Source: Bacteroidia bacterium (GTDB lineage Bacteria > Bacteroidota > Bacteroidia > UKL13-3). From it: DNA of 32,000 nt. The DNA is taken from assembly GCA_020049855.1 (NCBI GenBank), contig JAGVLJ010000057.1:306-32305 (forward strand), in the 5' to 3' direction. Each line of letters begins with the position of its first letter. Position 1 is the stretch's first letter. Positions 21,745-32,000 of this stretch are shown here, piece by piece. The notes below the pieces were generated by a model. That model was given only the letters and a program-made list of their open reading frames with translations. It had not been told where the DNA came from and searched no databases. A program made the translations under genes and the position numbers.

Positions 21745-21752
21745 TATTTTTG
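21745..21752 (+). promoter_or_regulatory. Candidate -7 box (TAttTTTG) of the nuo operon
   Basis: TATTTTTG matches TAnnTTTG and ends 20 nt before the nuoA ATG. It lies downstream of the strong terminator at 21642-21677. Confidence 0.35.
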
Positions 21753-24996: not shown

Positions 24997-25413
24997 ATGA
25001 TACTTGAAGAAGCAAAAGAGATTTATAAAACATTAGAAAGTTATCCTTTACAAGAGGAAGCTTTTCAGGTAATAGGGGCGTGTATGGATGTGCACATGGA
25101 GTTAGGTAAAGGCTTTCTTGAGATAGTGTACAAAGAAGCATTGGAATATGAATTCCGCAAAAGAGGAATAGCCTTTGAGCGGGAAAAGAAATTTGATATT
25201 CAATACAAAGAAATAACACTTGCTCACTCCTACTATGCTGACTTTGTTGTGTGCAATAACATTATACTTGAGGTAAAGGCTCAGGAAGGTGTGATAGAAG
25301 AACATTATAAACAAGTGATTAACTACTTGGCGGTTTCAAAACTCCAATTGGGATTGCTTGTTAATTTTGGAGAAGCTTCATTAAAATTTAAACGAGTTGT
25401 ATTAACCAAATAA
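24997..25413 (+). CDS. GxxExxY protein (PD-(D/E)XK nuclease-fold superfamily) inserted between nuoE and nuoF
   Basis: 138 aa. GKGFLEIVYKEAL (the G..E..Y signature), ADFVV...IILEVKA (a D..(E/L)VK PD-(D/E)XK-like core), QVINYL and LLVNFG. Confidence 0.85.
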   Translation: MILEEAKEIYKTLESYPLQEEAFQVIGACMDVHMELGKGFLEIVYKEALEYEFRKRGIAFEREKKFDIQYKEITLAHSYYADFVVCNNIILEVKAQEGVIEEHYKQVINYLAVSKLQLGLLVNFGEASLKFKRVVLTK

Positions 25414-26805: not shown

Positions 26806-27081
26806 ATGAAAAAACAACTTCTTTACATCTTGCTTATTGTTGGTGGCTTAGCCAGCATCTTCGCATTTAAGAACTCGGGGCAAACGCCTAAGTATGCCCG
26901 CCTGATTTCTTACATTGACGGTACTATGGTAATGGAGTACGAAGACAACACCACCGAAACCATGAAATCGGGGCAAATGAAACCATTGGCTAAAATCAAT
27001 CAGGTAGCAGCCAAAGGATACAAAATGATATCATCGCACGGTGGTGATAAGTACCATGTATACGTTTTTGAAAAAGAATAA
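26806..27081 (+). CDS. Small membrane-anchored or secreted protein of unknown function inside the nuo operon
   Basis: 91 aa. Starts 6 nt after the nuoF stop. N-terminal hydrophobic helix LLYILLIVGGLASIFAF, then a ~65-aa soluble domain. The C-terminal pattern INQVAAKGYKMISSHGGDKYHVYVFEK weakly recalls DUF4177-type small domains. Confidence 0.6.
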   Translation: MKKQLLYILLIVGGLASIFAFKNSGQTPKYARLISYIDGTMVMEYEDNTTETMKSGQMKPLAKINQVAAKGYKMISSHGGDKYHVYVFEKE

Positions 27082-27120: not shown

Positions 27121-28077
27121 ATGCCTAAAGTTACAATAGACGGACGCACCATTGAAGTACCAGAAGGTACTACCATATTGCAGGCAGCCCGCATGGTTGG
27201 TCCCGAGGTGGCTCCTCCGGCCATGTGCTACTATACAAAATTAAACACCAGTGGCGGCTATTGTCGCACCTGTATTGTAAAAGTAGCACAGGGATCTGAA
27301 AAAGATCCGAGGCCCATGCCCAAACCGGTTCCATCCTGCCGCACCATGGTAATGGATGGAATGGTGGTAGAAAACGAAACCTCACCCGAAATTGTGGAGG
27401 CCCGCAAAGGGGTTGTTGAATTTTTACTGGCCAATCACCCGCTCGATTGCCCGGTGTGCGATCAGGCCGGAGAATGCCACTTACAAGATTTGAGCTATGA
27501 ACACGGAAGTGCTAAATCGCGTTATGAATTTGACCGCAGAACATTTGATAAAATAGATATTGGCCCCTACGTGCAACTGCACATGACCCGTTGCATCATG
27601 TGCTATCGCTGCGTAAAAGTAGCTGAGCAAATTACTGATGGACGGGTACATGGAGTGATTAACCGTGGCGACCATGCTGAGATTTCCACCTATGTAGAAC
27701 AAGCCATTGATAACGATTTCTCCGGAAACGTAATTGACGTGTGTCCTGTGGGTGCCTTAACGGATAAAACCTTCCGTTTTAAAAGCCGTGTGTGGTTTAC
27801 CAAACCGGTAGATGCACACAGAGATTGCACTACCTGCAGCGGTAAAGTAGTATTGTGGTATCAGGGCGAAGAAGTACTAAGGGTAACAGGACGAAAAGAC
27901 CAGTGGGGCGAAGTAGAAGAATTTATTTGCAACGAATGTCGGTTTGAGAAAAAGAAAACAAGCGACTGGACGATTGAAGGTGTTCGCACTATTGATCGCC
28001 ACTCTGTGATTTCACAGGGGAAATACGCAAGAGATCTTGAAATTCCTGCTCATACTAAAAAGAAATTGATTAAGTAA
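27121..28077 (+). CDS. nuoG: NADH-quinone oxidoreductase subunit G, short form
   Basis: 318 aa. 2Fe-2S (C..GGYCRTC) and HPLDCPVCDQAGEC, CIMCYRC and CPVGAL cluster motifs. It lacks the molybdopterin-like C-terminal extension, which I recall being usual in Bacteroidota. Confidence 0.9.
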   Translation: MPKVTIDGRTIEVPEGTTILQAARMVGPEVAPPAMCYYTKLNTSGGYCRTCIVKVAQGSEKDPRPMPKPVPSCRTMVMDGMVVENETSPEIVEARKGVVEFLLANHPLDCPVCDQAGECHLQDLSYEHGSAKSRYEFDRRTFDKIDIGPYVQLHMTRCIMCYRCVKVAEQITDGRVHGVINRGDHAEISTYVEQAIDNDFSGNVIDVCPVGALTDKTFRFKSRVWFTKPVDAHRDCTTCSGKVVLWYQGEEVLRVTGRKDQWGEVEEFICNECRFEKKKTSDWTIEGVRTIDRHSVISQGKYARDLEIPAHTKKKLIK

Positions 28078-28080
28078 AAC

Positions 28081-29112
28081 ATGGACTTAGCATTATTACT
28101 CGATAAAACGATTCTTATTCTGATTTTGTTCGGAGTAACTCTTTTCATTGCCATGTACAGCACCTACGCTGAACGAAAAGTGGCCGCATTTCTTCAGGAT
28201 AGAATTGGCCCAGACCGTGCGGGTCCCTTCGGTATTTTGCAACCATTGGCCGATGGGGTGAAGATGTTTATGAAGGAAGAAATTATTCCGAACACTGCCG
28301 ACAAGTGGTTATTTATTATCGGTCCTGGTATAGCCATGTGTACGGCTTTAATGACCAGTGCCGTGATTCCATGGGGTAAAAACATTACCATTGGCGGACA
28401 TGAAATAGTGCTGCAGGTAGCCGATATAAACATTGGAATTCTTTACGTTTTCGGAGTGGTTTCATTAGGTGTGTACGGTATAATGATTGGCGGTTGGGCA
28501 TCCAACAATAAGTTCTCGCTGCTGGGTGCAATCCGCGCTTCCTCGCAAATGATTAGCTATGAACTGGCCATGGGTATGGCTTTAATAGCTATTCTGATGT
28601 CAACAGGCTCGTTAAGTATTCGTGATATTGTAGAAGGACAACACGGCTGGCATTGGAATGTGCTGTATCAGCCTTTAAGTTGTTTGATATTTATTGTATG
28701 CGCTTTTGCCGAGTGTAACCGTACTCCGTTTGATTTGCCCGAATGTGAAAGCGAATTAGTTGGAGGATATCACACTGAGTACAGCTCGATGAAATTAGGA
28801 TTTTACCTTTTTGCCGAGTACACCAATATGTTTATTTCTTCCGCTATCATTTCATCACTTTATTTCGGAGGATACAACTTTCCGGGAATGGATGCATTTA
28901 GCGGTAATACATTGGCTTTGCTGGGCACAGCGGTTTTCTTTGCTAAAATATTTTTCTTCATCTTCTTCTTTATGTGGATTCGCTGGACATTGCCACGTTT
29001 CCGGTATGACCAATTGATGAGGCTCGGCTGGCAAATATTGATTCCACTGGCCATTTTTAATATTCTGGCTACAGGAACCTGGATGACATTTAAAGGATAT
29101 TTAGGATTTTAA
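28081..29112 (+). CDS. nuoH: NADH-quinone oxidoreductase subunit H
   Basis: 343 aa and polytopic. AERKVAAFLQDRIGPDR and RTPFDLPECESELVGGYHTEYS motifs. Confidence 0.95.
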   Translation: MDLALLLDKTILILILFGVTLFIAMYSTYAERKVAAFLQDRIGPDRAGPFGILQPLADGVKMFMKEEIIPNTADKWLFIIGPGIAMCTALMTSAVIPWGKNITIGGHEIVLQVADINIGILYVFGVVSLGVYGIMIGGWASNNKFSLLGAIRASSQMISYELAMGMALIAILMSTGSLSIRDIVEGQHGWHWNVLYQPLSCLIFIVCAFAECNRTPFDLPECESELVGGYHTEYSSMKLGFYLFAEYTNMFISSAIISSLYFGGYNFPGMDAFSGNTLALLGTAVFFAKIFFFIFFFMWIRWTLPRFRYDQLMRLGWQILIPLAIFNILATGTWMTFKGYLGF

Positions 29113-29183
29113 AATTTTGGATGATGAATGACCAATTTTTAAGTAAGGCCCATTTAAGCATTAAAAATTAACCATTAAGAAAT

Positions 29184-29201
29184 TTAATTGCATGCAATTA
29201 A
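29184..29201. repeat. 18-bp perfect palindrome centred on the nuoI start codon
   Basis: TTAATTGCATGCAATTAA is its own reverse complement. The ATG at 29192-29194 sits in the central CATG. Confidence 0.6.
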
Positions 29202-29722
29202 CAAACAGATCAAAAGTTGTATCAAATAAAGAAATGACCTGGGTTGAAAAAATGTACCTACCGGCCATTTTCGGTGGACTTTGGATTACCATAAGGCACT
29301 TCTTGCGCAAAAGTGCTACCATTCGCTATCCTGAAGTGAAACGTGAGGTAAGCACCGTGTATCGTGGTAAGCATGTGTTAAAACGTGATGAGCAAGGCAG
29401 AGAGAATTGCACAGCCTGCGGTTTATGTGCTGTAGCCTGCCCTGCCGAAGCCATTACCATGGATGCAGCCGAACGTAAAAAAGGAGAAGAGCATTTATAT
29501 CGCGAAGAAAAATATGCAGCTAAATATGAAATTAATATGCTGCGTTGCATTTTTTGTGGCTTATGCGAAGAGGCATGTCCTAAACAGGCAATCTACCTTA
29601 CCCCCGAATTTCCCGTAGCTAATTACAACCGGAGCAACTTTATTTTCGGAAAAGATAAATTGGTTGAACCAATAGATAAACGAATTGATGTATCGCTTAA
29701 AAAGAAAGTACATACTTCTTAA
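29192..29722 (+). CDS. nuoI: NADH-quinone oxidoreductase subunit I
   Basis: 176 aa. Two 4Fe-4S motifs: CTACGLCAVACP and CIFCGLCEEACP. Confidence 0.95.
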   Translation: MQLTNRSKVVSNKEMTWVEKMYLPAIFGGLWITIRHFLRKSATIRYPEVKREVSTVYRGKHVLKRDEQGRENCTACGLCAVACPAEAITMDAAERKKGEEHLYREEKYAAKYEINMLRCIFCGLCEEACPKQAIYLTPEFPVANYNRSNFIFGKDKLVEPIDKRIDVSLKKKVHTS

Positions 29723-29750
29723 GTAAATAATAAACTATAAATTAAATTTT

Positions 29751-30617
29751 TTGAAAACAAAACTCTATTATTTTCTCTTTACACTATCAGTTCTTCTACT
29801 CATAGTGAGTTACAAAAAAGATGACAAACTTTTTTTAACCCAATTTAAACCCAAATCATCAAGCTACAGTCAATATTATTTAACTGATAGCTTAGCCTTT
29901 GGGAAGATAAAACAGATTTTTCAAGATAAAGAAAGCTTCATGAAGGAATATATGAAGACTATTGCAATAGCTTCTATGGATTTAGTAAAAGACACAAACT
30001 ATCTAAATTTAATTGATTCTATTACTAACTCATATGACACAATTGTTGGAGTGGATTATTATGCTTATATATATGACCAAGTTGAAATGGCATATGCTTC
30101 AAAATTTGGCCGTTCCTTACTTGATGATTTTAAAACTTCATTAATAAACAATAGTGCGACCTTGTATCAAAGGCAATTACTTGATTCTTTCGGGCTAAAT
30201 TTCGAGATAGACGGTATTAACTTTTCTCCAAAATACTTTTTGTATTATAAAAACAGCGGTCTTTATACCAGTATTACAAATCGTTTGCCTTCGTTGACTG
30301 CAACACTTCAATTTCCTGATGACTCAATTCCATTATGGAGATATGATACTACTTATCACACATTCCTTTATACACTTACTAATTTAAGTTATGTGGATGG
30401 AAGTGCGTTGATAGATGTTTCTCTACGCATTTCCTACCAACAAAGTAGCAACTCGAGACCAATTCTATATTTATTTGGTAATCGTTACGAGGCTTTAGGT
30501 AGATGTAAATCCGATATGACAGGTTGGTGTACTATTGCATGTAAATGGTGGCTTGGCTGCTGTGGATGTAACCATCCATTCCCAAGGCCAAGAATTACAG
30601 AGTCTGATTATATATAA
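29751..30617 (+). CDS. Exported hypothetical protein with a C-terminal six-cysteine cluster (cassette gene 1)
   Basis: 288 codons from TTG 29751, open in AT-rich DNA. N-terminal hydrophobic segment YYFLFTLSVLLLIVS. C-terminus CKSDMTGWCTIACKWWLGCCGC. I recognise no family. Confidence 0.6.
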   Translation: MKTKLYYFLFTLSVLLLIVSYKKDDKLFLTQFKPKSSSYSQYYLTDSLAFGKIKQIFQDKESFMKEYMKTIAIASMDLVKDTNYLNLIDSITNSYDTIVGVDYYAYIYDQVEMAYASKFGRSLLDDFKTSLINNSATLYQRQLLDSFGLNFEIDGINFSPKYFLYYKNSGLYTSITNRLPSLTATLQFPDDSIPLWRYDTTYHTFLYTLTNLSYVDGSALIDVSLRISYQQSSNSRPILYLFGNRYEALGRCKSDMTGWCTIACKWWLGCCGCNHPFPRPRITESDYI

Positions 30618-30625
30618 TCCAGCAG

Positions 30626-31168
30626 ATGAAATATTTTTTTAGTCTCTTATTTACAATATCATTAGTGTCTATGGGTCATGGAGTCAATCCTCCTGATTCA
30701 ATAGGGAAGATAGCACCAATATCTACATTCAGATTAGCTGGGAATTTATACTTTGACAAAAAAGACTTGAGATATTCAGATTGGGTTTCATTTATTTCTA
30801 GTCCATTTCTGATTGAATTAAATCTTATTGCCCCTGAATACGATGATTCAACATTTAAGTTCATTTTAATAGAAGGGTATAAACATCCAAACAAAATTAT
30901 TCAAAGCCTACCTATTAAAGAACTAATGCTTTATATCAAATGGAGAAATACCGTAGTCAATCATTTTAAAAAACAGTTTACAACAGGTATGGAAGGGTGT
31001 AGTGGAAATAAATATTATGAACAATTTCGAACTGTAGATCCGAATAACGAATGGCAGATTTGTTACGAATTGGCTCCGGATTCAATTCTTACCAAGTATC
31101 GTTGTAAAGGAATACGTTGCATAGCTTATTATAAAAAAAATACTTTAATAGCCAAATACAGCCAATGA
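30626..31168 (+). CDS. Exported hypothetical protein (cassette gene 2), with faint FGE/SUMF1-like sequence echoes
   Basis: 180 aa, starting 8 nt after gene 1. Signal peptide MKYFFSLLFTISLVSMG and four Cys. LYFDKKDLRYSDWVSFI, LMLYIKWRN and KGIRCI loosely resemble conserved blocks of formylglycine-generating-enzyme-type domains. Confidence 0.6.
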   Translation: MKYFFSLLFTISLVSMGHGVNPPDSIGKIAPISTFRLAGNLYFDKKDLRYSDWVSFISSPFLIELNLIAPEYDDSTFKFILIEGYKHPNKIIQSLPIKELMLYIKWRNTVVNHFKKQFTTGMEGCSGNKYYEQFRTVDPNNEWQICYELAPDSILTKYRCKGIRCIAYYKKNTLIAKYSQ

Positions 31169-31260
31169 GTCAATACGTTTTTTTATTTCTTTCACTGTTA
31201 TCGGTGCTTTGTGCCCTTTCAGTGATTTTAATAAAAAAATTGATTATTAAATTAAGTTGA
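31165..31260 (+). CDS. 31-codon hydrophobic mini-ORF (cassette gene 3), not in the ORF track
   Basis: ATGA overlap with the gene 2 stop. Translates as MSQYVFLFLSLLSVLCALSVILIKKLIIKLS: one TM helix and a Lys-rich C-terminus. It ends 7 nt before the next ATG. Confidence 0.4.
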   Translation: MSQYVFLFLSLLSVLCALSVILIKKLIIKLS

Positions 31261-31267
31261 TGAATTT

Positions 31268-31798
31268 ATGAGCAAAAAAAGTTTAGTTTTAAGAAATTTG
31301 GGACTTTTATTGATACCATTGCTTTTAGGTAATTTTGGTGGGCTTCGGTTAAGAACAAAAACGTACAAAACTCTACAATTAAAAATCTTAATGTATGAAC
31401 CTGATGCCTGGCGACTCCCTATTTGCCCCCCTCCAATGATAACTGATGTATCAGTTATTGACCAGCAGTTTAATCCAATTAACTCACCAAATGCATATTT
31501 CGGTTTAGTTTCTGTAAATGACGGACAAAGTGAGATATTTACCGGAGCAATTGGAAATGGAAATTTACCTAAAGTTGGTAGTTACTATCAGGTAACCATT
31601 CCCAAAAACTATACAAGATGGTGTAGAATATCCACAACAATCTATGAACCATGTTCGAACGGGTGTGATCGAATGACATGGCGAGTCGAGTACATTTTCA
31701 ATCCAATTGATATGTACGACATGCAGGCAATTACTATTTTCCTGAAAGAGATCAATAGAAATCAGCCTAATGCTAATTATTTAAAGCGTAATTGCTAG
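31268..31798 (+). CDS. Exported cysteine-containing hypothetical protein (cassette gene 4)
   Basis: 176 aa. N-terminal LGLLLIPLLLGNFGG hydrophobic segment. Five Cys, including ICPPP, WCRISTTIYEPCSNGC and a terminal C. I recognise no family. Confidence 0.6.
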   Translation: MSKKSLVLRNLGLLLIPLLLGNFGGLRLRTKTYKTLQLKILMYEPDAWRLPICPPPMITDVSVIDQQFNPINSPNAYFGLVSVNDGQSEIFTGAIGNGNLPKVGSYYQVTIPKNYTRWCRISTTIYEPCSNGCDRMTWRVEYIFNPIDMYDMQAITIFLKEINRNQPNANYLKRNC

Positions 31799-31805
31799 TA
31801 AAAAT

Positions 31806-32000
31806 ATGAGAAAATATTTCATTTTAATAATCGTTTTTACCCTAGCAACGAATTCCGGATGCAGGAAAGGTTCGGATTCTATTGTTGGAGAAAAACCATG
31901 GGGGAATAAAAAACTAGTTTTACATGGAAACCAAAATCTTATTGATGAATATACGGATTTTTTTACAGGAATAAACTACTCGAAAATTTCCCTAACTATG
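31806..32000 (+). CDS. Lipoprotein, 5' part only, runs off the window (cassette gene 5)
   Basis: ATG 31806 is 7 nt after the gene 4 stop. 65 codons are open to the window end. MRKYFILIIVFTLATNSGC is a signal peptide with a lipobox-like SGC. Confidence 0.55.
   Translation, partial: MRKYFILIIVFTLATNSGCRKGSDSIVGEKPWGNKKLVLHGNQNLIDEYTDFFTGINYSKISLTM

Follow-up and report, generated by a model that had tools for sequence, protein, structure and literature searches.

A lineage-restricted islet of genes for predicted exported proteins between nuoI and nuoJ in a Bacteroidota complex I operon

What are the genes that follow nuoI, at the place of nuoJ, in the complex I (nuo) operon of a Bacteroidia bacterium? 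The DNA analyzed, called the window here, is a stretch of 32,000 nucleotides from assembly GCA_020049855.1 (contig JAGVLJ010000057.1) that ends shortly after nuoI. An earlier note, made from the letters of the window, had described five genes (g1 to g5) for exported proteins with no recognisable family and had taken them for an accessory module inserted into, or appended to, the complex I unit. The explanation favored here, which we rate at slightly better than even, is that the genes form a lineage-restricted, strain-variable islet for envelope proteins in the nuoI|nuoJ junction of a complete 14-gene complex I operon, and that they would be read through with the operon and would not encode complex I subunits.

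The source contig (32,307 bp) ends inside g5. A Logan contig (L001), identical to the window across an overlap of 828 nt, completes g5 and has a second copy of the nuoJ start at its end. A Joint Genome Institute (JGI) contig (L089) overlaps the composite of the window and L001 at 680 of 680 positions and continues with nuoJ (165 aa), nuoK, nuoL, nuoM, nuoN and the gene of a Kup transporter. The nuoJ gene begins 13 nt past g5, and nuoJKLMN are intact. Thus, extension of the contig through overlaps of 100% identity decided the question left by the earlier note in favor of an insertion. The inserted DNA, about 2.9 kb inside the nuo operon, is called the islet here. The same layout, with the nuo genes resuming after the islet, was observed in two close relatives (L082 and L084).

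The nearest relative at species level (L002, NuoI 86% identical) carries no islet, and its nuoJ, beginning MSHYVFLFLSLLSILCAMAVIF, starts 60 nt past the nuoI stop codon. NuoI was used to recover the loci of 81 other Bacteroidota species. A nuoJ gene could be seen in 76 of them, and in 75 it lies 14–270 nt past nuoI (about 73 of those loci are complete); the comparison of synteny therefore gives nuoJ directly after nuoI in about 73 of the 81. The exceptions were one locus with an unrelated ORF (open reading frame) at the junction (L024), one cluster broken after nuoI (L048) and three contigs that end too early. Since nuoJKLMN resume after g5 and about 73 of the 81 other species have nuoJ right after nuoI, the islet is a true insertion, confined to a few lineages. 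A search of 5.8 billion protein clusters and 241 million metagenome records turned up its genes in only a handful of assemblies. A metagenome scan with g2 returned a single match, the JGI contig already known, and public annotations and gene calls give the islet ORFs no function, using "hypothetical protein" where they name them at all.

The islet is not the single five-gene cassette that had been proposed. All five ORFs are present, and their coordinates, starts, stops and gaps (28, 8, −4, 7 and 7 nt) were reproduced by the ORF map (Table 1), but only four of them are real genes. Gene 3 (g3) is most likely a gene remnant, a duplicated 5′ fragment of nuoJ, rather than an independent gene. It reads MSQYVFLFLSLLSVLCALSVI, that is, 22 nuoJ codons, nine unrelated codons and a stop, and the segment that it contains, called nuoJ′ here, matches the true nuoJ start of L089 at 64 of 66 nt (two differences). 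Equivalent repeats were found in L082 (63 of 65 nt identical) and L084 (66 of 66), and behind the repeat the tail of the ORF that contains nuoJ′ varies in length and sequence by lineage (31, 21 and 26 codons). The export predicted for all five products was upheld for g1, g2, g4 and g5, each with one N-terminal hydrophobic segment, but not for g3, whose hydrophobic segment is a copy of the first transmembrane segment of NuoJ. The cysteines reported beyond the N-terminal segment of genes 1 to 4 are likewise not found in g3, where the single Cys sits inside that segment.

The four genes form two modules, g1+g2 on the left and g4+g5 on the right, which are present or absent independently among the relatives (Table 1). 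What stands of the accessory module is therefore the insertion; instead of one cassette it comprises two modules of different age and a nuoJ fragment.

Table 1. Features of the nuo operon and of its nuoI|nuoJ junction, and layouts of the junction in related lineages. Positions are those of the named source.
Feature	Source	Position	Strand	Description
nuoA −7 box	window	21745–21752	+	TATTTTTG; 21 nt upstream of nuoA ATG; Bacteroidota-type; window-wide motif count at chance level
ORF between nuoE and nuoF	window	24997–25413	+	138 aa; PD-(D/E)XK_3 nuclease superfamily (Pfam E 4e-37)
ORF between nuoF and nuoG	window	26806–27081	+	91 aa; N-terminally anchored; no known family
nuoI	window	29192–29722	+	two Fer4 domains; stop TAA 29720–29722; last complex I gene 5′ of the insertion
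nuoI–g1 spacer	window	29723–29750	+	28 nt; no terminator or promoter motif
g1	window	29751–30617	+	TTG start; 288 aa; exported (predicted)
g2	window	30626–31168	+	ATG start; 180 aa; secreted (predicted)
nuoJ′	window	31164–31229	+	66-bp direct-repeat copy of nuoJ 5′ end (1 nt upstream plus codons 1–22); left repeat of g4-g5 module
Gene 3 (g3)	window	31165–31260	+	ATG start; 31 aa; ATGA overlap with g2
g4	window	31268–31798	+	ATG start; 176 aa
g5	window	31806–32000	+	ATG start; 65 codons within the window; 287 aa in full
Junction in L082/L088	JGI			nuoI-g1-g2-nuoJ′-g4-g5-nuoJKLMN; same set of four as the window
Junction in L084	NCBI GCA_019695215.1 (metagenome-assembled genome)			nuoI-g2-nuoJ′-g4-g5-nuoJ; no g1; proteins MBX7204994-96, all "hypothetical"
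Junction in L096				g4(partial)-g5-nuoJ-nuoK
Junction in L083	more distant lineage (NuoJ 83% identical)			nuoI-g1-g2-nuoJ; no g4-g5, no repeat
ORF between nuoI and nuoJ	L024	10551–11252		233 aa; signal peptide; unrelated to the islet
MNT (NTP_transf_2)/HepT pair between nuoF and nuoG	L084	6426–7065		toxin-antitoxin pair
MNT (NTP_transf_2)/HepT pair between nuoF and nuoG	L097	1457–2096		toxin-antitoxin pair

The g4-g5 module, an insert of 1.45 kb, is bracketed by 65–66-bp direct repeats of the nuoJ start, of which the downstream copy is the intact gene, and the repeat junction is the same in all three lineages that carry g4 and g5. Lineage-specific substitutions are common to both repeat copies within one genome, and the two copies agree perfectly in L084, which points to one ancestral event followed by gene conversion. 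An assembly artefact was ruled out as the source of the repeat, as three independent assemblies show it with lineage-specific differences. Neither the islet ORFs nor their neighbors in the window, L082 and L084 encode a transposase, integrase or recombinase domain, and no convincing inverted repeats were found at the module ends, where the nuoJ direct repeat was the only notable one. For lack of both a recombinase and inverted repeats, an origin from a transposon or integron was rejected. The g4-g5 module may have entered by a single, Campbell-type crossover of a circular DNA bearing a 5′ segment of nuoJ, and gene conversion would since have kept the two repeats alike. The likeness to Campbell-type integration lies in the direct repeats of the 5′ end of the target gene and in the intact downstream copy; the difference is that the searches here turned up neither an integrase nor an att-like core, a tRNA target or inverted repeats, the event being reconstructed from its presumed product. 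Rfam and tRNA scans of the window gave nothing. Separately, contigs in the short-read Logan assemblies of the same strain were seen to stop precisely at the 66-bp nuoJ repeat (the end of L094 and both ends of L001); therefore, many metagenome assemblies likely contain the islet in pieces or miss it, and part of its rarity may be technical.

The history of the left module is different. Between the window and L082, synonymous divergence (dS) reaches 0.82 in nuoI, 0.32 in g4 and 0.40 in g5, compared with 0.026 in g1 and 0.058 in g2. The sliding-window identity of the two rises from 76–90% to 96–100% at about position 29650, and the block, of 97–100% identity, ends at about 31200; its breakpoints are the nuoI 3′ end, as the left homology arm, and nuoJ′. 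The L082 backbone is otherwise like that of L084 (NuoI 98.9% and NuoJ 99% identical, with the same MNT/HepT pair between nuoF and nuoG), and L082 g2 is 93% identical to the g2 of the window and only 66% identical to that of L084. Because g1 and g2 are near-identical while nuoI differs by a dS of 0.82, the sequences indicate a recent exchange of g1-g2 between diverged backbones, with conserved nuo sequence as homology arms. The GC of third codon positions is also lowest of all window genes in g1 (0.27) and g2 (0.24), with 0.35–0.48 in the nuo genes; the five GC counts made by hand for the earlier note were exact on recount. O-antigen and capsule loci are known examples of flexible genomic islets in which surface or envelope genes, placed between core genes, are exchanged by homologous recombination. 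The nuo islet resembles them in its conserved flanks (nuoI 3′ and nuoJ 5′), its hyper-divergent alleles, the presence or absence of its modules and the recent transfer between diverged backbones. It differs from them in being tiny, in lying inside an essential respiratory operon and not between operons, and in having products that belong to no known surface-structure pathway.

Selection on the islet was assessed from the ratio of nonsynonymous to synonymous divergence (dN/dS). For the window or L082 against L084 it was 0.15 in g2, 0.07 in g4 and 0.12–0.17 in g5, with 0.01–0.04 in nuoG, nuoH, nuoI and nuoJ, and the dN of the islet genes was 3–30 times that of the nuo genes. Ratios of 0.07–0.17 argue for purifying selection on the islet genes. 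A highly improbable alternative is that the islet is decaying, non-functional inserted DNA that is tolerated since read-through continues. Such decay would agree with the TTG start and lost lipobox Cys of g1 in the window, with a dN/dS of about 0.54 for g1 and g2 in the very recent comparison of the window and L082, with the nuoJ′ remnant and with annotations that offer no function. It is opposed by all four ORFs being intact in three or four lineages, by the low ratios holding across a dS of about 0.9–1.7 and by the invariant Cys patterns and lipoboxes that have been retained.

The products were then considered one by one. The g1 protein has six invariant Cys within its last 40 residues, in the pattern GRC-x7-C-x3-C-x5-CC-x-C, the final CC-x-C being C270, C271 and C273. 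Its relatives carry a lipobox (IVSC in L082, VISC in L083) and are predicted lipoproteins, but the g1 of the window fails this test, with IVSY and thus Tyr21 in place of Cys. Compared with L082 g1 (97% identical), it has TTG instead of ATG at 29751–29753 and TAC instead of TGC at codon 21 (29811–29813), and L082 g1 has lost the stop codon and is 7 codons longer. These changes of start, lipobox and stop may be early signs of decay of g1, and the window allele may be losing function. The surface-export (LES) signal of Bacteroidota lipoproteins is K-(D/E)2 or Q-A-(D/E)2 just past the +1 Cys (PMC5080379); judged by eye, the g1 of L082 (C-K-K-D-D-K) fits the K-(D/E)2 form and that of L083 (C-Q-K-E-N) fits in part. 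Homologues of g1 were limited to 2 clusters among the 5.8 billion. The AlphaFold2 (AF2) model of g1, built from 3 sequences, was unusable, with a predicted local distance difference test score (pLDDT) of 35.7.

In the right module, g4 begins with an anchor or signal segment and contains five invariant Cys, one of them the C-terminal residue; its dN/dS against L084 is 0.07, and no other member of the cassette is as conserved. The lipobox-like SGC noticed in the last gene was borne out, with NSGC in the window, ISGC in L084 and an invariant Cys, and g5 is predicted to be a lipoprotein; the residues that follow (C-R-K-G-S-D) do not fit the surface-export signal. No family match was obtained for g4 or g5 in Pfam, NCBIfam or orthologue-profile searches of the PDB; when orthologue alignments of g1, g2, g4 and g5 served as sequence profiles against the PDB, no match fell below E 0.7. 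The modules are not paralogous by profile-profile comparison (g1 with g5, g2 with g4), and all-against-all BLASTP found nothing. The g1, g4 and g5 proteins remain orphans, with no relatives outside the islet.

None of the four proteins is polytopic in the manner of NuoJ, NuoK, NuoL, NuoM or NuoN, as had been stated: beyond the single N-terminal segment no transmembrane segment was predicted, in contrast to five hydrophobic segments in the NuoJ of L089. No match to the Oxidored_q3, Oxidored_q2 or Proton_antipo_M profiles was found for g1, g2, g4 or g5 at E≤1 in Pfam, and the downstream NuoJ, NuoK, NuoL, NuoM and NuoN of L082, L084 and L089 do match these profiles. Membership in phage genomes or in known anti-phage defence was also looked for: PHROGs and PADLOC scans of the islet products gave nothing (best E 0.049), and four viral-contig scans contained zero relatives of them.

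In Pfam, NCBIfam, PHROGs and PADLOC there is no match for any of the five ORFs, so the absence of a recognisable family was reproduced at that level; it does not hold for g2, a remote and truncated relative of the FGE-sulfatase family (PF03781; FGE, formylglycine-generating enzyme). The g2 gene is the only islet member present in every complete copy of the junction examined. Its profile, searched against 1.84 billion representative proteins with full HMMER, retrieved the small Bacteroidota proteins P0009 (E 3.4e-8), P0010 (E 7.8e-8), P0014 and P0015 (E range to 1e-4), here called mini-FGE proteins. P0010, P0015 and P0009 score 50.5, 33.2 and 28.2 bits on PF03781, all above the Pfam gathering cut-off of 23.3 bits. 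The LRR_6 eukaryote-like repeat proteins P0011-P0013 and P0016, also found with the g2 profile (E 1e-6 to 2e-4), were rejected as repeat-amplified false positives that arose through a "KHPN(K/C)KxQ" stretch. The g2 of the window itself has no PF03781 match at E≤1, and its L083 orthologue reaches 15.0 bits (E 0.02), below the cut-off. Alignment of the g2 orthologues (profile A3) with the mini-FGE proteins (profile A8) by hhalign gave a probability of 99.5% and E 1e-22 over 152 columns. The A8 profile matches PorK/GldK structures at E 2e-10, and a mixed profile (A7) does so at E 1.5e-6 across only about 48 residues.

Only positions ~24–110 and the C-terminal GFRC strand of PF03781, a domain of ~255 positions, are covered by g2. 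It retains a helix of the "AYCKWRS" type as well as the N-terminal and GFRC strands, and lacks the middle of the domain, a lipid anchor and a lipobox. It therefore has neither a complete domain with the FGE catalytic Cys pair nor the lipidated N-terminus and Cys343 of GldK; its conserved Cys125 and Cys165 fall outside the expected place of that residue, between the RLPTEAEWE and GLYDMAGNVAEW motifs (PMC12635249). As the homology is significant, yet g2 fails the Pfam cut-off and its AF2 model has no Foldseek match, it is taken for a remote, truncated FGE-fold homologue that belongs to the family only in part.

By profile comparison, the closest solved structures to the FGE relatives of g2 are PorK and GldK, proteins of the T9SS (type IX secretion system). 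PorK, GldK and GldJ (PDB 9mzu, 9ots, 9myj and 9p6h; PMC12421860, PMC12635249) are FGE-fold lipoproteins of the T9SS/gliding track of Bacteroidota, and the FGE fold of PorK is a non-enzymatic docking hub (PMC12421860). PorK/GldK have in common with g2 and the mini-FGE proteins an N-terminal D-K-x-E/D-hydrophobic strand, a "P-V-x-G-(I/L)-x(3)-Q/E-x(2)-A-Y-C-K-W-R-S" helix and a G-F-R-C strand at the C-terminus, and the g2 family is, like PorK, Bacteroidota-specific and probably non-catalytic. In contrast to PorK/GldK (440–490 aa), g2 has 180 aa, lacks the lipobox, the middle of the domain and the insertions that bind PorN/GldN, is encoded apart from gldLMN, stays below the Pfam cut-off and has an AF2 model with no Foldseek match. 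It may serve as a non-catalytic docking module, as the FGE fold does in PorK/GldK, possibly coupled to the Cys-rich tail of g1.

The likeness raises the quite unlikely alternative that g1-g2 are an accessory of the gliding/T9SS track, g2 being a mini GldK/PorK-like FGE module and g1 an outer-membrane lipoprotein whose CC-x-C tail forms a disulfide with g2 or GldK. In addition to the closeness of the g2 relatives to PorK/GldK among solved structures, the invariant CC-x-C near the g1 C-terminus would suit such a role, and so would the C-K-K-D-D of L082 g1, which resembles the K-(D/E)2 signal (PMC5080379). The outer-membrane proteins SprF and PorG are disulfide-bonded to GldK Cys343 through a C-tail Cys-Xaa-Cys (PMC12635249), and a pairing of the g1 tail with g2 by this analogy is a lead, not a result. 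However, g2 lacks a lipidated Cys and the region equivalent to Cys343, to which Cys125 and Cys165 do not map; g1 would be a lipoprotein and not an 8-stranded barrel, its six tail Cys suggesting internal disulfides; the window contains zero T9SS or gliding genes; and g2 occurs without g1 in L084.

A distinctly unlikely alternative is that the islet genes encode accessory or assembly factors for complex I that face the periplasm and are specific to the lineage, placed at the boundary of nuoA-I (peripheral arm) and nuoJ-N (membrane arm) and made in step with the enzyme. The genes are embedded in the operon at gaps of 7–28 nt, g1-g2 keep the same position in the distant L083, the islet genes are under purifying selection, and the mature parts are rich in Cys, as expected of disulfide-stabilised periplasmic proteins. 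In mitochondria, complex I includes subunits that are rich in Cys and face the intermembrane space. By analogy with these, the islet proteins could be disulfide-rich, exported supernumerary subunits or assembly factors in the periplasm whose alleles are swapped between strains, a very unlikely possibility; to our knowledge, no periplasmic accessory subunits of a bacterial complex I have been described. Were the products to bind complex I, they would be such subunits, but the evidence argues against it. Presence varies: L084 lacks g1, L083 lacks g4-g5, and the sister L002 and about 73 other species lack the whole islet. The dN is raised as given above, g2 alleles are only 65% identical on backgrounds with 99%-identical NuoI/NuoJ, the lipobox Cys of g1 is lost in the window, and Bacteroidota lipoproteins are mostly placed in the outer membrane. 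Moreover, relatives of g2 stand at loci without a link to nuo, the contexts of P0009, P0010 and P0014 being either short or unrelated to it.

The explanation favored here, a strain-variable envelope islet, would have the products pass through Sec and signal peptidase I or II and reach the periplasm and outer membrane, where they would act apart from NADH:quinone oxidoreduction as strain-variable envelope components, their genes hitch-hiking on the constitutively expressed nuo operon. Hitch-hiking envelope components fit better than obligatory complex I subunits because presence varies, because alleles diverge on near-identical nuo backgrounds and because g2-like proteins occur elsewhere with no nuo link.

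Transcription of the islet was addressed with simple motif scans. No terminator-like hairpin follows nuoI, in agreement with the earlier note, nor does one occur in any intergenic space, and no full Bacteroidota-type −33/−7 pair or terminator-like hairpin was found in 28000–32000 or at the g5-nuoJ junction. The box TATTTTTG upstream of nuoA is a probable promoter of the nuo operon. Because neither promoter nor terminator motifs were found in the islet, and nuoJ-N follow 13 nt downstream of it, the nuo transcript would have to cross it; co-transcription is suggested by the tight spacing, the lack of such motifs and the need to express nuoJ-N. The islet, with no promoter or terminator of its own, would then be read through on an mRNA that runs from the nuoA promoter to nuoJ-N.

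Alternatively, the insertion may have split the operon, so that internal promoters drive g1-g5 and nuoJ-N as one or more separate transcription units; we consider this unlikely. The broken cluster of L048 indicates that nuoA-I and nuoJ-N are separately expressible in Bacteroidota, and the islet is AT-rich (29–35% GC), as DNA with promoters often is. One −7-like box, TAATTTTG, was found at 31330. However, −7 boxes occur at chance level, no −33/−7 pair or terminator-like hairpin accompanies it in the region scanned, and gaps of 7–28 nt with an ATGA overlap leave no regulatory space.

Several points weigh against the envelope islet as the explanation. Simple scans capture Bacteroidota promoters poorly and an internal promoter may exist, co-transcription and export are predictions from sequence, and the envelope role proposed for g1, g4 and g5 has signal peptides, lipoboxes and Cys patterns as its whole basis. 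The g1-g2 pair holds the exact junction in the distant L083 (NuoJ 83%), as a link to complex I would also predict. Without the ATG start and the lipobox Cys, g1 at least may be decaying in the window. Regarding g2, the profile of its orthologues alone (A3) found no FGE match in the PDB and did not reach PorK. Its AF2 model (pLDDT 76.5, predicted template modelling score 0.71) had no match in the PDB and BFVD by Foldseek (best E 1.8) and retrieved no FGE structure.

Extra genes in such operons are not without precedent. In Paracoccus denitrificans and Rhodobacter capsulatus, unidentified reading frames (URFs) lie scattered among the genes of the nqo/nuo operons; the open-access literature on nuo-operon URFs yielded nothing usable. 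As in those alphaproteobacteria, the islet consists of extra same-strand ORFs among complex I genes, outside the 14 core subunits and in an uninterrupted operon. It differs in belonging to another phylum, in genes for predicted exported proteins and lipoproteins that vary between close strains and in the flanking nuoJ duplicate, the likeness being one of gene organisation only. Extra ORFs in nuo/nqo operons, variable islets flanked by core genes and Campbell-type duplications are thus known already. The novelty lies in their combination within the complex I operon of a member of the Bacteroidota, in the repeated nuoJ fragment, in a short form of the FGE fold and in three orphan families of predicted exported proteins.

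These results suggest that strain-variable genes for predicted envelope proteins can reside in a core respiratory operon, whose transcription must then pass through them, and that conserved nuoI and nuoJ sequence can act as homology arms for gene exchange with no dedicated recombinase. They also add a short, apparently repurposed PorK/GldK-like form of the FGE fold, as well as three orphan families of predicted exported proteins.

Elsewhere the window has the content of an ordinary Bacteroidota chromosome, with cmk, rpsA, pyrB, trpS, a DEAD helicase gene, a LytTR two-component pair, mazG and an OmpA-like gene followed by nuoA-I. The nuoI|nuoJ junction is a recurrent break or insertion point: the ORF found there in L024, another Bacteroidota metagenome-assembled genome, encodes an outer-membrane-protein-like product by eye, and in L048, a Saprospiraceae, the nuo cluster is physically broken after nuoI. 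Other junctions of the operon were also seen to carry additional genes (Table 1). The PD-(D/E)XK_3 ORF between nuoE and nuoF has relatives in L002 (59%) and L017 (49%). Between nuoF and nuoG, the MNT/HepT pair is present in L084, L097 and L082-type strains and absent from the window; it represents a third type of passenger gene in this operon. With extra genes at E|F, F|G and I|J, the nuo operon of this clade is therefore generally permissive to insertions at its junctions, and it offers a natural system for asking why some junctions tolerate them. The 91-aa protein encoded between nuoF and nuoG is 94.5% identical in L002 (more than the 86% of NuoI) and 52% identical in L084 and L085, and a second, 112-aa paralogue occurs in L084, L002 and L097. 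The 91-aa protein is a better candidate than the nuoI|nuoJ islet for a lineage-specific accessory protein of complex I.

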